From the NCBI GenBank assembly GCA_965242965.1, contig OZ251518.1, positions 4,736,001 through 4,800,000 on the forward strand: 64,000 bases of DNA, read 5' to 3'. The notes below the pieces were generated by a model. It saw only the letters and a program-made list of their open reading frames with translations. It did not search any database and was not told the origin of the DNA. The position numbers were made by a program, and so were the translations under genes. Positions 9,457 to 14,978 of this stretch are shown in pieces. This DNA is from Candidatus Poribacteria bacterium (GTDB lineage: Bacteria; Poribacteria; WGA-4E; WGA-3G). Each line of letters opens with the position of its first letter. The first letter of the stretch is position 1.

Positions 9457-10245
9457 CTATTCTGTGAAATTCAAATCAAAGAAACGAGGCTCTTGGCCAT
9501 GAGTTCCGGGTACCAACGTGTGAGCATGACGCGCAATCTGCTCAAAAGCCTCGTAGGTAATTTCAAACTCACTGTGCACTGCAAAGTATGCCTCATCTAA
9601 CTCGTACAATCTTGGCTTTTCGCCTCTCACGGCGAGAGAGTCAAAAATGTAACCGTAAAGCGAGAAATCGTCTTCTCTTTGAAGTTCCTCGATATAGAGG
9701 GTGAACCGATTCACCCCTTCCGCGCATTCTCTCGCTAGCCTCTCAAGGCGATCAAAACACGCAAGAATAACTTGAGCCGGGGCCAGGTTGTCCTCGCAGA
9801 TGGCACGGAATGCTTCAAAAGCGAATGCCATATAGTCCCTGCTAACATGCTGGTCTATAAGATCTCGGTGAAGATCTCTATCGGTAGCAGCATCAACGAA
9901 AGCTCGGCTATAATCTGCTCGCAACTTGCCATCTAGCCATTGGCGAGTGTCGCGAAAGTCGTTTGCCACATTTACCCACGCCACGTTGGCCTCTGTTGAA
10001 TGAGCCAAGGTTTGGACGAAATGGGGATGTTGACTTTCTCGGTTGCGGAGACTTGCAGCGTAAGCGGTTTTAAGGGATACGCTAGCGTTTAGAGTCACGA
10101 GCTTGGTTTCAACGATCGATTTGCCAAGTTTGGCCAAACGAAACTCTGCCTCCGGATCGTATTTGACTTGAGCACCGGTCAAATTAATCACATTCACGAT
10201 GTAACCGGGAATAGATGTTAAAACGGCGGTGCAAAGAGTTATCAT
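9457..10245 (-). CDS. Orphan hypothetical protein, 262 aa
   Basis: Long ORF with AGGAG RBS 10 nt upstream; no family recognised; codon usage looks more A/T-ending than neighbours. Confidence 0.7.
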   Translation of the reverse strand: MITLCTAVLTSIPGYIVNVINLTGAQVKYDPEAEFRLAKLGKSIVETKLVTLNASVSLKTAYAASLRNRESQHPHFVQTLAHSTEANVAWVNVANDFRDTRQWLDGKLRADYSRAFVDAATDRDLHRDLIDQHVSRDYMAFAFEAFRAICEDNLAPAQVILACFDRLERLARECAEGVNRFTLYIEELQREDDFSLYGYIFDSLAVRGEKPRLYELDEAYFAVHSEFEITYEAFEQIARHAHTLVPGTHGQEPRFFDLNFTE

Positions 10246-10857
10246 GGATCTTTATCTCCTAACTGATTTTTCTGCGTAACATTCCATCAGAAGCGTTACC
10301 CAGAATCAGGTTAAAAACACCTGCCACCATCAGGTTGCTATCCCGTTACCCCCATCCCCTCGGTTCGCCCACACCATCAAAAATGCGCGAAGATAGTAAC
10401 CTGCACCGCCAAAAACGGCGCGCGGAAACTTATCACGCAGGCAAGAGTGGACAAATAGGGAAAATAAAACGGAAACGGTTGCAACCGAAGTGGCAGGGAA
10501 AACATGCACCGGGACCAAATTCCCGATGCAACGAAAATAACCCGCCACGCAAAGAATGCGTGCGGGATCGAAGACAACAAGACGACGAAAGTCGCCGCTG
10601 TCAAGTGAATAAACTTTGCTTAACGCCTGTGGGTGTCGGGGGGGGTCGAGCCTCCCCTCTGGGCATTAAGGTGAACGGGAACTCGTCGTGACGGCGCGAC
10701 AACGGGCATAGACGCACGGCAAGCGTGCATCTCTCGGTGCCCAAGCAGGTCTACGGTGACCTCGGTAGCAATGGAAAAAACAATTCGCTGGTTCACGGTA
10801 TCGTTCCTCTGTTCGGTTTCGCGGTGGCGCGTTTTTTTCGCGCGTATCACCACGTTT
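10246..10857 (-). ncRNA. Candidate ~600-nt structured RNA or 5' leader
   Basis: Downstream of three consensus promoters; many helices whose G-U wobbles mostly form only on the minus strand. Confidence 0.6.
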
Positions 10858-10863
10858 GCATTA

Positions 10864-11037
10864 ATGATACATGAAAATGCAATAAATGTCAAACATTTTT
10901 CGCGAAAAATCGTGGAAATGTTCACAATTAACCACATTCTATAGGAATTTCGGTTTTTTGTCAACGTTTTTCTACGAAAAATCGCCAAAAATGTTTAAAA
11001 CTGAGTCTATTTTAGCAAATGTCGCGTTTTTTGTCAA
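10864..11037 (-). promoter_or_regulatory. Three tandem sigma70 promoters
   Basis: TTGACA(10892-87)-17-TATCAT; TTGACA(10964-59)-17-TAGAAT; TTGACA(11037-32)-17-TAAAAT. Confidence 0.85.
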
Positions 11038-11089
11038 GGTTATTTCGCGAAAAAAACGCTGTTATTTCGCGAAAAAAACGCTGCTGCTA

Positions 11090-11565
11090 CCGTAGCGCGG
11101 GGGCCTGTCCCCCGCGATCTACCGACCTAAACGAAAACCGTCCGCAGCCCAGAGACTACGAACGGTTTCTGTGACAATCTAGGCACGGCGAGGGACAGGC
11201 CCTCGCCCTACGGTGCTCGGCGCGGTTTTCTACGTTTCACCGTAGCGCGGGGGCCTGTCCCCCGCGATCTACCGACCTAAACGAAAACCGTCCGCAGCCC
11301 AGAGGCCACGAACGGTTTCTGTGACGAACGAGGCACGGCGAGGGACAGGCCCTCGCCCTACGGGTCGGCGGCACGGTTTGGATAGCCAGAAAATAAAACG
11401 CACATTAAGGTCTTACAGACCTAAAGAGACGTTTCCGCGCAATAAAAACCTCTAATCCTGCTAATCTTGAAAATCTTGGAAATCCTGCTCATATTCGGCG
11501 AGGGACAGGCCCTCGCCCTACGGGAACCCCTGAACGCATCGAGACCAGGAGGTCTCTCCTACGGG
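11090..11565. repeat. REPIN cluster
   Basis: Two near-identical inverted REP pairs (11091-11212, 11241-11362), similar to 3820-3970. Confidence 0.9.
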
Positions 11566-11577
11566 GGAAGGAGGATA

Positions 11578-13020
11578 TCAAAATTCTCTCTTAATCCCAA
11601 ACATCACTGACGTTTTATGAATCGGTTCAAATCCCGTTTCAACGCGACGGAAGCGGTATTCTCGGAGGATAATCGTCTCTAGCGGCGGATAAATCGCATA
11701 GCGGAGCTCTACGCTGAACGCTGACTTTTCATCCAAGTCAAACAGATCTCCGAAGAAGTTGGTATCTCCACCTTCGCCGATGTCTCGCTTGGTATAGAAC
11801 GCCCGCGCAGATAACCGCGGGACTACCCCCGATTCCGTGATACCGATATAGAGTTTCGGCTCGCCATCGGTGTAATCCTCAAACGTGCCTAAAAAATAGA
11901 ATTGCGGCAACGGCTGCCAGATCAGTTGCGAAAAATAGCCGCGTCGCGCAGCGGTGTCCGTATCCGCGCCTAAAAACTGCGGCACATTTGTCCTCGGCAA
12001 ACCTATCTTCGCCGATTCATAAGTATAATCAAACACGGAAGGAATGTATCCATCGCTGAAGAGGCGGTATTCAAGTTTGAAAACGGCTTGCGTCCACGCA
12101 AACCCTACGCCGACAGCATTTCCCCACGTGAGTCTCGTTCCTCCGGTAGGAGAGACCTCCTGGTCTCGATTCCCCCCAGTAGGAGAGACCTCCTGGTCTC
12201 GATTAAGAGAAACCCCCCGGTCTCGATTAGGCGCATCCTCCCGATCTCGATTTTCGCCTGTATTCAAAAAAACGACATCGTCATACACATTCAACCGAAA
12301 CGTGCCGGTCTCGAAAATCGGAAACCCGACATCAGCCCCCAGCGCGATGAGTGGTTCCTCGCCAATTTCCTGCACATTCGCATCGATGTCGGTAAGATAG
12401 GTAGCACCTACTTCAAATCGGGTGAAGAGACTGTTATTTTCGGCGCGTTGAAAGGGCCGGAAAAACGCGCGTCCGCCAAAGATTGTCGGCGCGCCAATAT
12501 CGTTGAGCATCGTCTCAACGCCGTATCGGTTGTCGGAACTTCTGAGGTTTAGCTGCACGCCGCGCCTATCGTAGTTGGAATAGCCGGACATGATCGAACC
12601 GTGCCCAATGGTCAGATAGTCCAATTCCCCGAAACGGAAATGGAACGGCTCATTCGGTTGTCCATAACGGATATAGCGGATGAGCCGCAGCCACGTGCTA
12701 GGATTATTCCAATCTTCGGCATCTTCGGCGAGGAATCGGGGTTCATCGGTTTCAGCGAACGGATTGTAAAGCACCACCAAGTCCAATCCGAGTCCGAGTG
12801 CGCCGATGGGGATATCGGGTTGCAGCTGAATCTGAAGGAACGGATTGCTGTCAATAAAGGTTAGGCCGCCCCCATCTAAACCGCCTTTTGCGAAGGGACG
12901 TGTTTCTACCGCGCCCGTTAGCAATTCCTCTTCCTCCATCGGCGCATCTTGTGCGTAAATGTGAGCGGCGAGCGCGAAAATCAGAACGCCAATCGCAACC
13001 CATTTCTTCGTTTTCCTCAT
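11578..13020 (-). CDS. Hypothetical exported/outer-membrane beta-rich protein with in-frame REP insertion
   Basis: Signal peptide, C-terminal F, LRYIRYGQP...RFGEL segment; start overlaps the ABC ATPase stop. Confidence 0.75.
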   Translation of the reverse strand: MRKTKKWVAIGVLIFALAAHIYAQDAPMEEEELLTGAVETRPFAKGGLDGGGLTFIDSNPFLQIQLQPDIPIGALGLGLDLVVLYNPFAETDEPRFLAEDAEDWNNPSTWLRLIRYIRYGQPNEPFHFRFGELDYLTIGHGSIMSGYSNYDRRGVQLNLRSSDNRYGVETMLNDIGAPTIFGGRAFFRPFQRAENNSLFTRFEVGATYLTDIDANVQEIGEEPLIALGADVGFPIFETGTFRLNVYDDVVFLNTGENRDREDAPNRDRGVSLNRDQEVSPTGGNRDQEVSPTGGTRLTWGNAVGVGFAWTQAVFKLEYRLFSDGYIPSVFDYTYESAKIGLPRTNVPQFLGADTDTAARRGYFSQLIWQPLPQFYFLGTFEDYTDGEPKLYIGITESGVVPRLSARAFYTKRDIGEGGDTNFFGDLFDLDEKSAFSVELRYAIYPPLETIILREYRFRRVETGFEPIHKTSVMFGIKREF

Positions 13021-13772
13021 GCGACAATCCTTCCGTCTTTCATGTGGATAACCCGGTCTGCGTTCGCCTTCAACCCTTCGTGGTGTGTCACGATGGCGAT
13101 GGTAGTCTGGTGTTCTTGGCGCAGTTCTTGGATGAGATTCATCAGGTTATCGCTTTGGCGGCTGTCAAGGTTCGCGGTGGGTTCATCGGCGAAGATGATT
13201 TTCGGACGGTTGGCGAGGGCGCGCGCAAAAGAGACGCGCTGTTTCTCGCCGCCAGACAACTGCGCAGGCCGGTGATGGAAGCGTTCTGCTAACCCGACTT
13301 GCGTTAACAATTCTTGTGCGCGGTTCGCGGCTTCCTCGGTGTTTGTTCGCGCAATGTCCATCGCAACCATCACGTTTTCTAGTGCGGTGAGGTAGGGCAA
13401 AAGATGGAACAGTTGGAAGACAAACCCGATTTTCTCGCGGCGGATTTGGCTCATGTCGTGTCGGGAGGGGAATCGAGACCGGGAGGTCTCTCCTACGGGG
13501 CCGGAGGGATCCCCTGCCGAGGGGAGTCGAGACCGGGAGGTCTCTCCTACCGAGGAGATGGTTTCACCATCAATGCGGAGTTCGCCTTCATCAGGCGTTA
13601 AGATACAGCCGAGGAGGCTAATCAGCGTCGTCTTGCCGCAGCCGCTGTCGCCCATAATCATCACCAATTCGCTTGCTTGAATAGTGATGTCCACCGAATC
13701 AATCGCAACGACGGTGGCATCACCGGTGCCGAAGCGTTTGGTTAAGTTTGTGCCTTCTACGATTGCCGCCAT
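13017..13772 (-). CDS. LolD/MacB-type ABC transporter ATP-binding protein with in-frame REP insertion
   Basis: GDSGCGKTT, IGFVFQ, LSGGEKQR, ADEPTANLD. Confidence 0.9.
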   Translation of the reverse strand: MAAIVEGTNLTKRFGTGDATVVAIDSVDITIQASELVMIMGDSGCGKTTLISLLGCILTPDEGELRIDGETISSVGETSRSRLPSAGDPSGPVGETSRSRFPSRHDMSQIRREKIGFVFQLFHLLPYLTALENVMVAMDIARTNTEEAANRAQELLTQVGLAERFHHRPAQLSGGEKQRVSFARALANRPKIIFADEPTANLDSRQSDNLMNLIQELRQEHQTTIAIVTHHEGLKANADRVIHMKDGRIVA

Positions 13773-13785
13773 TATGTTTTCCTCA

Positions 13786-14916
13786 CTAGAGCTCACCCCT
13801 GAACGCTATCATCGGATCGACGGTGATTGCCTTCCGTGCCGCTAAATAGCCGCTCAGGCAGCACACAATCAGACTAATCCCTGCCACGATGAGCGATTCC
13901 ACAAAGTGAATTGCGACGAAAATCGGGGCTGCCGCCGCGAAAAGATATGCCAGAACCAGGCCGCACAAAACGCCGCTCACCGAGATCAGCGCGACCTGCT
14001 TCAGGAGCAGGGACATCACGTATCCGTTTGACGCGCCGATCGCTTTCAGCACGCCGATCTCCTGCGTCTTCTCAAGCATCGTGACGTAGGTAATCATGCC
14101 GACGAGAAGTCCCGCCGCCAGCCAAAGCATGACGCGCAGGAATTGCACCGCTTTCATCGGTTCATTGACATAATACTCGATGATGTCTCCGAGTGTCTGT
14201 TTCAAAGTGCGCGCCTCAATGGTCTCAAGCGAATCCAAATCGGAGGCGAGTTGCGATGCGGGTTGATTTTCGGTTGTTTTAGCAATCATCATGTTGACAT
14301 GCGGCGAATTGCCGAGCAACACTTTCTGCGCGATGCGGACATCCGTGAAGAGCAGCGGCGTATCCAAAACGAACATCAGACTTTTCGCCTTGCCGACTAC
14401 CCGCAGTTTCTCGTTGCCGATGGAAATCTGTTCGCCGATTTCCAGTCCCATCTTTTCGTCAACAACCACCTCAAACGGTGCCTGGTCTTCGGGACGATAG
14501 TCGTCGAACTGGCTCGGCGTGAACAGTCTCCCCTCAATCACCCGCTTCGGGCCGCCGAGTTTTCCCAATTTATAGCCGACGATGATTGCTTTCGTCGATT
14601 TCCCTCGGACCGTTGGGCGCGCCTGCGCGAAAACCAGCGGCGAAGCAGAATCCGGCACTAAGCCAGGTGACGAATTTAACCACGCCATGTATTCCTCAAT
14701 GACGAGGGAGAACCCGATGAAGGCACCGCCAGAACCTTCGGCGGAAATCCAGACGTTAGCACCGGTGGATTCCACGTATTGCCGCGCTTGGATACGCATG
14801 CCGTTCATGATGCCGCCCAATAATAGAATGAGCGACATCAGCACGGTGATGCCGAGTGCTGTCAGCACGACGCGTGCCCGGCGGTATCGCATGTCTTTAA
14901 GGAATAAGGTTTTCAT
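13786..14916 (-). CDS. MacB/FtsX-type ABC transporter permease
   Basis: N-terminal TM, periplasmic domain, EIGVLKAIGAS, C-terminal TMs; alternative start at 14937. Confidence 0.9.
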   Translation of the reverse strand: MKTLFLKDMRYRRARVVLTALGITVLMSLILLLGGIMNGMRIQARQYVESTGANVWISAEGSGGAFIGFSLVIEEYMAWLNSSPGLVPDSASPLVFAQARPTVRGKSTKAIIVGYKLGKLGGPKRVIEGRLFTPSQFDDYRPEDQAPFEVVVDEKMGLEIGEQISIGNEKLRVVGKAKSLMFVLDTPLLFTDVRIAQKVLLGNSPHVNMMIAKTTENQPASQLASDLDSLETIEARTLKQTLGDIIEYYVNEPMKAVQFLRVMLWLAAGLLVGMITYVTMLEKTQEIGVLKAIGASNGYVMSLLLKQVALISVSGVLCGLVLAYLFAAAAPIFVAIHFVESLIVAGISLIVCCLSGYLAARKAITVDPMIAFRGEL

Positions 14917-14978
14917 TTTTTCTACCAGGTCTGTCATCGCCGTTGGCGATGCCTACGTTCTTGTGATTTCTTCAACTG

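Follow-up and report, generated by a model that had tools for sequence, protein, structure and literature searches.

A dispersed promoter-plus-leader cassette with conserved RNA structure, restricted to a narrow lineage of Poribacteria

Attenuation leaders such as riboswitches, T-boxes and protein-dependent antiterminators lie in the 5′ untranslated region (UTR), where a conserved sensor domain is followed by a terminator and then by the co-oriented gene. In the JUMPstart/ops system with RfaH and in LoaP leaders, many operons whose products are secreted or lie at the surface share a leader element, which ties them to a single elongation or antitermination factor. The upstream homology box of Borrelia lipoprotein genes and the 5′ regions of the Mycoplasma vlp and vsp genes, which carry homopolymer tracts, are cases, in host-associated bacteria, of the same promoter region being recombined before different surface-protein genes. 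Correia/NEMIS and ERIC repeats located in 5′ UTRs fold into long hairpins which affect mRNA processing and stability through RNase cleavage. The closest described concept to the element reported here is the putative mobile promoter: Nijveen, Matus-Garcia and van Passel (2012, PMC3575422) found upstream regions with at least 80% identity before unrelated coding sequences in one genome, which are shared between related taxa and some of which carry RNA motifs, so post-transcriptional control may travel along with the promoter. Their survey scored positions -150 to -50 only, and most of its families are pairs (PMC3575422). Here we analyse a 64,000-nucleotide stretch of a Candidatus Poribacteria genome (contig OZ251518.1, positions 4,736,001 to 4,800,000; hereafter the window, whose own numbering is used throughout), and describe a family of lineage-restricted promoter-plus-leader cassettes to which minus-strand positions 10246-11037 belong. 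The family is a new finding.

We read 10246-11037 as one copy of a lineage-restricted, dispersed, cis-acting promoter-plus-leader cassette that would exert conditional read-through or stability control, and place the probability of this reading at roughly 55%. The copy number and distribution of the cassette, its conserved base pairing, its co-orientation with downstream genes and its strand bias were observed directly. The part between 10246 and 10857, which an earlier note on this DNA had picked out as a folded leader, spans exactly the distance from the expected promoter start point to the start codon and is a structured minus-strand leader. The transcript of the nearest promoter (P3, Table 1) is expected from the usual spacing to begin near 10857-10859, 7 nt past a -10 box (TATCAT) that ends at 10864, which fits 10857, and 10246 adjoins the ATG at 10245.

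The stretch is one of many similar ones in its own genome (5.70 Mb in two contigs). With 10246-10860 as query, blastn returned 20 places at 70-100% identity, most of which cover 10860-10497 (364 nt) at 80-92% and three of which reach 540-596 nt, and a profile hidden Markov model search (nhmmer) returned 22 matches, 17 of them near full-length. Because the stretch is multicopy, a sensor specific to the gene behind the window copy, a 262-aa open reading frame (ORF), is unlikely. Outside this genome the element is rare: a covariance model of its junction domain (R1; 140 positions, 32 pairs) run on 151 Poribacteria genomes gave 20 matches in the window genome, seven in a second genome (G002) and two in a third (G004), representing two of the 22 genera sampled, and nothing in the other 148. 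When the 364-nt core was searched by blastn against 40 relatives, only G001 (seven places), G002 (six) and G004 (three) contained it. G001 and G002 belong to the genus of the window genome and G004 to another genus of the same family, and the element is restricted to four genomes in these two genera. An exact-pattern scan for T1, the first of two terminator-like hairpins in the leader, across 185,579 species genomes detected nine stretches, seven of them in Poribacteria and all matching R1 at 125-150 bits; in metagenomes the pattern had a single match, at the edge of its sequence. Two Planctomycetota sequences, JAMOAF010000344.1 and JAQVNJ010000067.1, share a T1-like hairpin only, in an unrelated context and with no R1 match, and are not homologues. 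The pattern match in JAMOAF010000344.1 lies within a gap of about 250 nt that looks non-coding by eye.

We also rejected a minus-strand leader that precedes a lamin-tail protein gene in the window genome (G000:C1:2221900-2222650), which scored E 0.07-0.22 with nhmmer and E of at least 0.02 with blastn and is not homologous. It shares a small motif with the cassette, a poly-C followed about 12 nt later by GCCGTTAA, comparable to ACCCCCCCC...GGCGTTAAG in the cassette.

A midpoint-rooted FastTree phylogeny of 29 copies contains two deep groups. The larger one holds a single clade of the 16 main copies of the window genome and, beside it, separate clades of the G2 copies and of the G1 copies. At a pair of duplicated tyrosinase loci (own_3293k and own_2612k, at 3.293 Mb and 2.612 Mb of G000:C1), the copies have identical 267-nt tails and different variants of helices 8-10, a mix of tail and core that suggests recombination between cassette copies. 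The combination of clades and shared tails is what repeated recombination or gene conversion would give, and equally what recent bursts of copying would give; the pattern does not tell these apart.

The element corresponds to no catalogued RNA family that we could find. Rfam 15 gave no match in the whole window at gathering thresholds, and a scan of 9900-11600 at E ≤ 10 gave no credible family, its best sub-threshold scores being 15.7-22.4 bits against cut-offs of 39-211. Apart from two matches to microRNA models, one per strand, which reach in from the promoter region, none of these falls in 10246-10857 on the minus strand. The RF03064 (RAGATH-18) model has no match either. Nor did the whole-window Rfam scan, which covered the whole library, point to a relation with the Poribacteria-1 motif. 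Full-text literature searches, with supplements outside their scope, returned no match for "Poribacteria-1" and, among the papers listed, none pairing Poribacteria with the terms RNA motif, riboswitch or leader.

The window copy is predicted to fold strongly on the minus strand. The minimum free energy (MFE) of 10240-10860 is -243.2 kcal/mol, compared with a mean of -204.4 (standard deviation 6.7) for 20 dinucleotide-preserving shuffles, none of which was as good (z = -5.78); the plus strand reaches -213.0 kcal/mol (z = -2.96). Every helix named in the earlier note is present in the minus-strand MFE structure. The stem CCTGCCAC (10497-10490)/GTGGCAGG (10327-10320), which closes a long interrupted helix, has pair probabilities of 0.986-1.0 in the partition function of 10240-10506, and the local hairpins that had been listed beside it can be assigned to the structure whose pairs we counted across copies: TGCATCGGGA/TCCCGGTGCA (10530-10505) is helix 20, GACAGC-GGCGAC/GTCGTC-GTTGTC (10602-10573) is helices 17/18, GATGCACG/CGTGCGTC is helices 9/10 and TTAATGCC/GGCGTTAA is helix 12. 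In this fold, the long helix does not occlude the Shine-Dalgarno sequence AGGAG (10260-10256).

We aligned the core, a conserved multi-helix region of about 364 nt (10860-10497), in 29 copies (alignment A1) and counted the pairs of the window copy's fold on it, with pairing partners slid by 1-3 columns as controls. The 101 pairs of the core are 90.7% paired across the 29 copies, compared to 32-45% for slid partners. Both partners have changed in 20 pairs; 2 of 500 shuffles do as well, and none of the 500 attains the covariation score of 0.136 (0.102 in shuffles). Compensatory changes, whose absence from homologues the earlier note had named as grounds for dropping its structure, are found in the core helices, for example at columns 157:205 (AU 15, CG 9, UG 4), 174:180 (GC 15, AU 10), 332:362 (AU 20, GC 7) and 313:324 (AU 16, UA 7). 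Because the copies are close kin, covariation gives modest support to a conserved secondary structure. RNAalifold, run on sequence-based alignments, found only part of the core structure and missed the long helix, so we relied instead on per-copy folds and on pair counts for the named structure.

Past 10497, blastn loses most copies, yet homology continues. Fourteen copies (alignment A2) keep the 5′ arm of the long helix (CCCUGCCAC AUUUCCGGUUGC ... UUUCCCCUGUUUGUC) and a purine-rich 3′ arm which ends in GUGGCAGG and is followed by GUUUUUAAC, and all 14 individually fold into a long interrupted helix with the same closing stem. The remaining copies have a shorter variant starting CCUAUCUG, or do not have the module at all. 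On the uncorrected sequence alignment, the long helix is 74.7% paired, compared with 40-51% for slid partners, and its covariation score of 0.188 (0.150 in shuffles) was reached by none of 500 shuffles; its 16 double-change pairs are unexceptional, having been reached by 54 of the 500. The two arms contain 165 G-U pairs and four A·C 1×1 mismatches over the 14 copies, and the sense strand of the helix is more stable than the antisense strand in 13 of them, by a mean of 18.8 kcal/mol. This excess of G-U pairs and the bias in strand stability indicate that the helix is an RNA feature and not a DNA palindrome. The wobble asymmetry that the earlier note had described for the leader therefore holds for the long helix; it does not extend to whole leaders: the core hardly favours either strand, which leaves the sense strand ahead in only 18 of 28 copies. 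The long helix was never found apart from the core in the own genome. Among the copies which carry GUUUUUAAC, about 9 of 11 form a hairpin at the same place next to the ribosome-binding site (RBS), with stems of differing sequence, as judged by eye from the folds, and this RBS-near hairpin is a conserved module. Both the long helix and the hairpin, which had been proposed from the window copy, are conserved across copies and not products of chance.

The cassettes are all oriented alike relative to the gene behind them. In 28 of 28 evaluable copies, the core is followed at a distance of 46-418 nt by the start of an ORF on the same strand with 70 codons or more, one more copy being at a contig end, so the cassette sits in the 5′ UTR position of a co-oriented gene, as an attenuator leader does. 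Beyond the terminator-like hairpins, conserved modules extend as far as the ribosome site. The genes themselves are diverse, and many would encode secreted or eukaryote-like proteins: 14 of 20 scanned downstream proteins have Pfam matches, and the families vary from copy to copy. They include trypsin-like peptidase, tyrosinase, dockerin (below cut-off), FRG with TPR, TPR, a long coiled coil, cohesin with an end resembling a secretion tail, WD40, lamin-tail, PKD, patatin, animal haem peroxidase, LRR and LamG. Some associations recur, with tyrosinase and patatin genes each found behind copies in two genomes. The window copy is followed by the 262-aa ORF and then by an animal-haem-peroxidase-like gene, a homologue of which lies directly behind a copy of the element in G004 (L012, PF03098, 1.5e-16). 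The 262-aa ORF may accordingly be a lineage-specific insertion, or no gene at all.

The repeat unit includes the promoters as well as the leader. Extended queries in the own genome place its beginning upstream of the promoters, near 11118-11228, and the promoter module matches almost exclusively cassette loci, with no match at the genome's rRNA promoter stack locus. P3 is present in all 18 aligned own-genome copies, and the two upstream promoters in most of them. Dyads of T-tract and A-tract like the one before P3, TTTTTCGCGAAAAA, also precede P1 and P2 (at about 10968-10985 and 11045-11075) and are conserved in all copies; to judge by their sequence, they could be UP-element-like or bind a protein, perhaps a dimeric regulator. 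Positions 11090-11380 hold a different repeat that bounds the cassette upstream, namely two tandem REP-like units of about 140 bp with GTAG-type hairpins (CCGTAGGGCGAGGGCC...), a family with hundreds of copies on both strands across the genome.

Two repeats that resemble the promoter module and are 80-83% identical to the P1/P2 units lie at G000:C1:2676321-2676467, where no copy of the structured core was detected. Upstream of the window copy, on the same strand, 11578-14937 encodes a protein of 480 aa that weakly matches ImpL63, an ABC ATPase and a permease of the MacB/FtsX type, and the REP block separates these genes from the cassette.

Table 1 Features of the window copy of the cassette and of the genes behind it (window positions; helix numbers refer to the counted structure).
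Feature	Position	Strand	Details
Promoter P1	11009..11037	-	TTGACA-17-TAAAAT, 11/12, TG before -10 box; kept in most own-genome copies
Promoter P2	10936..10964	-	TTGACA-17-TAGAAT, 11/12 sigma-70 match
A/T-tract dyad TTTTTCGCGAAAAA	10896..10909	-	3 nt upstream of the P3 -35 box; read from sequence
Promoter P3	10864..10892	-	TTGACA-17-TATCAT, 11/12; in all 18 aligned own-genome copies
5′-terminal hairpin, A-rich loop	10820..10854	-	Helices 1-3; 84-96% of cells paired
Multi-helix junction closed by GGAAC/GUUCC	10671..10810	-	Helices 4-11; basis of covariance model R1 (window copy 152.7 bits)
Hairpin CUUAAUGCC...GGCGUUAAG with conserved poly-C	10619..10670	-	Helices 12-15; C8 at 10638-10645
Hairpin GACAGC-GGCGAC/GUCGUC-GUUGUC	10573..10602	-	Helices 17/18
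Terminator-like T1, CCCGCACGCA-UUCUU-UGCGUGGCGGG with U-rich tail UUAUUUUCGU	10531..10566 (hairpin 10566-10541)	-	Helix 19
Terminator-like T2, UGCAUCGGGA...UCCCGGUGCA with tail UGUUUUCC	10497..10530 (hairpin 10530-10505)	-	Helix 20
Long interrupted helix, closed by CCCUGCCAC/GUGGCAGG	10320..10497	-	5′ arm pyrimidine-rich, 3′ arm purine-rich
GUUUUUAAC motif and RBS-adjacent hairpin	10263..10318	-	Window fold and partition function
Shine-Dalgarno AGGAG (10260-10256) and ATG (10245-10243)	10243..10260	-	Sequence, ORF list
First downstream ORF, 262 aa	9457..10245	-	No Pfam, NCBIfam or Atlas match
Second downstream gene, animal-haem-peroxidase-like, 596 aa	7119..8909	-	PF03098, 1.2e-13

Two terminator-like hairpins follow the core helices. 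T1 has a predicted energy of about -16 kcal/mol, is 99.7% paired and nearly invariant, and in all 29 copies at least five of the 8 nt behind it are U; in the own genome its sequence is found solely inside cassette copies. T2, the site reported by a terminator scan, has a tail with at least five U of 8 in 14 of 29 copies. No conserved competing anti-terminator was found, and the invariance of T1 means that covariation cannot probe one.

These hairpins are central to the main rival explanation, in which the core of about 330-370 nt is a stand-alone, abundant, multicopy small RNA that ends at T1/T2 and acts in trans or binds protein, read-through into the gene behind it being incidental. Three tandem promoters at 11 of 12 matches, two successive hairpins with U-rich tails at the close of the best-conserved part, a T1 whose stem and loop are invariant in most copies and confined to them in the own genome, and a drop in inter-copy homology just after T2, at 10497, would all suit such an RNA. 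We nevertheless consider it rather unlikely: the 28 evaluable copies are without exception co-oriented with and near a downstream ORF, the terminators are often followed by further conserved modules (long helix, GUUUUUAAC motif, 3′ hairpin) that reach the ribosome site, and the U tracts are interrupted (UUAUUUUCGU, UGUUUUCC), that of T2 being U-rich in fewer than half of the copies. The second rival, that of a selfish or neutral dispersed repeat akin to a mobile promoter or a miniature inverted-repeat transposable element (MITE), would have the structure reflect the origin or spread of the repeat and the promoter merely point outward with no regulatory role. It would account for the high copy number, the 80-92% identity and clustering by genome, the confinement to four genomes in two genera, the very abundant REP-like repeats around the cassette and the existence of deletion derivatives. 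It would not lead us to expect a long helix that is no DNA palindrome (165 G-U to 4 A·C, sense strand favoured in 13 of 14) and has no independent copies outside the element, a uniform orientation to the downstream gene, helices kept by compensatory changes, or peroxidase, tyrosinase and patatin associations that recur across genomes. By eye, the ends in the own-genome alignment have no terminal inverted repeats or target duplications, and of the marks of a MITE or Correia-like palindromic repeat (inverted ends, target duplication, an independent unit) none was found. A selfish repeat appears improbable to us.

Two further proposals concern single parts of the leader, and we hold both to be very unlikely. 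One is that a short leader reading frame through the poly-C forms a slippage-driven on/off switch. The poly-C is present as C7-C11 in 29 of 29 copies with variable length (C8 in 18), a TTG-started frame of 47 codons crosses it in the window (10744-10601), and a similar poly-C, with GCCGTTAA behind it, is found in the unrelated leader at C1:2.222 Mb. However, substitutions in the part holding the poly-C are spread over the three codon phases without periodicity (179/111/144), the indels include 31 of 1 nt and 15 of 2 nt besides 68 of 3 nt, and the longest open frame changes phase from copy to copy. Eight of 29 copies have ACG, ACA or AUA in place of the in-frame ATG of CUUAAUG, which has no Shine-Dalgarno sequence before it. 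The contigs of four sequencing runs contain no length variant at 10638-10645, but they break at the repeat, drop rare variants and mix paralogues, and are no guide to poly-C length or strain variation. No conserved translatable frame with a start and a ribosome site was found across the homopolymer, such as a leader peptide or contingency locus would have, and a coding role for the poly-C region is unlikely on these sequence comparisons. The other proposal is the conformational switch of the earlier note, in which GAUAGCAACCUG (10342-10331) would detach from the long helix, pair with CAGGUUACUAUC (10403-10392) and thereby control the RBS-near hairpin. The complementarity on which it was built does exist (GATAGCAACCTG/CAGGTTACTATC, 11 of 12 positions), its duplex energy of -13.6 kcal/mol beats 99% of shuffles in the window copy, and four other copies also beat their own shuffles (fraction at most 0.04), making five of 12 testable copies. 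The switch itself found no support: each of the 12 pairs has a predicted probability of 0.0 and forcing the alternative costs 18.5 kcal/mol, both being equilibrium predictions outside which kinetic and co-transcriptional effects lie. In seven of the 12 copies, the homologous 3′-arm segment pairs with the apical region no better than shuffles do, and two further copies do not have the segment. Any pyrimidine-rich stretch can serve as a partner for the purine-rich 3′ arm, as cross-copy arm duplexes average -42 kcal/mol; in arm-swap calculations native arms averaged -55.8 and swapped arms -42.1 kcal/mol, a difference that is not decisive since the arms differ in length. We regard the alternative pairing in most copies as a probable by-product of composition, the pyrimidine-rich and purine-rich arms being generically complementary.

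A cis-acting cassette is favoured over these explanations because gene orientation is uniform, the conserved modules reach the RBS, the tandem promoters stand behind A/T tracts and two terminator-like hairpins follow the core. We propose that up to three tandem near-consensus sigma-70 promoters, each preceded by an A/T tract, drive a modular structured 5′ leader of about 600 nt, which would comprise in order the 5′ hairpin, the multi-helix junction, the poly-C hairpin, T1 and T2 with their U-rich tails, the long G-U-rich interrupted helix and the RBS-adjacent hairpin. Acting in cis, the cassette would give many unrelated genes a common strong transcription start and a common checkpoint after initiation, most likely conditional read-through of T1/T2 under the control of a factor able to recognise the conserved core. 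Processing or stability of the read-through mRNA might then depend on the long helix and the terminal hairpins, and recombination among copies would spread and homogenise the cassette.

Several points weigh against this proposal. The covariation is modest because the copies are closely related, many pairs are invariant, and a single member supplied the structure that was counted. The strand bias of the whole leaders is weak, and neither a ligand pocket nor an anti-terminator pairing was identified in the leader. The long helix and the RBS-near hairpin are missing from several copies, so both modules are dispensable. The signal-peptide status of the downstream proteins was judged by eye only, about 10 of the 17 first ORFs of the own genome starting like a signal peptide, a lipoprotein or a membrane anchor. 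Finally, the narrow distribution and high identity of the copies would equally be expected of a young selfish repeat.

A more specific version of the cassette reading is possible but doubtful. It holds that the leader represents an undescribed class of large (about 600 nt), modular cis-regulatory RNA which would place a host-interaction repertoire of eukaryote-like repeat proteins, secreted oxidases, lipases and proteases under one RNA-level signal through conditional read-through of two terminators, the signal being either host-derived or a report of the physiological state of the symbiont. Poribacteria are uncultivated, and eukaryote-like and secreted proteins are thought to mediate their life in sponges; one promoter-plus-leader module before some 20 such genes offers a concrete, testable handle on a regulon. 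If the cassette is indeed copied from gene to gene by recombination, new genes could be recruited into that regulon in one step. As an example of a regulatory RNA that moves together with its promoter, the cassette would be unusually large and clear, and it bears on how regulons can be assembled rapidly.

Among known systems, the cassette resembles attenuation leaders in the order of its parts, with terminator-like hairpins between a conserved, structured, sensor-like domain and a gene that is always co-oriented. It departs from them in that no ligand pocket, anti-terminator or specifier was identified and the genes share no pathway, and from ancient riboswitch classes in that its copies are 80-92% identical, confined to two genera and without an Rfam match. 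The ops signal is a 12-nt DNA or RNA element, as opposed to a structured RNA of 600 nt. The Borrelia and Mycoplasma regions are short promoters without a large conserved RNA structure.

Correia/NEMIS of Neisseria and ERIC of Yersinia, both cited in PMC3575422, are likewise dispersed intergenic repeats that bring promoters. They are DNA palindromes of 100-150 bp with terminal inverted repeats and target duplications. In the cassette the hairpin is one module of a larger non-palindromic unit, is never found alone and has mismatches biased towards sense-strand G-U. The criterion by which mobile promoters were defined, at least 80% identity over at least 50 nt before non-paralogous genes, compares with 80-92% identity over 360-830 nt before genes of differing Pfam families here; the own_3293k/own_2612k pair, being a duplicated tyrosinase locus, would be excluded under it. 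The Poribacteria family is not named in the main text of that survey (PMC3575422). It differs from the mobile promoters described there in being a unit of about 800 bp, with up to three promoters, a modular RNA of about 600 nt, about 20 copies and conserved base pairing.

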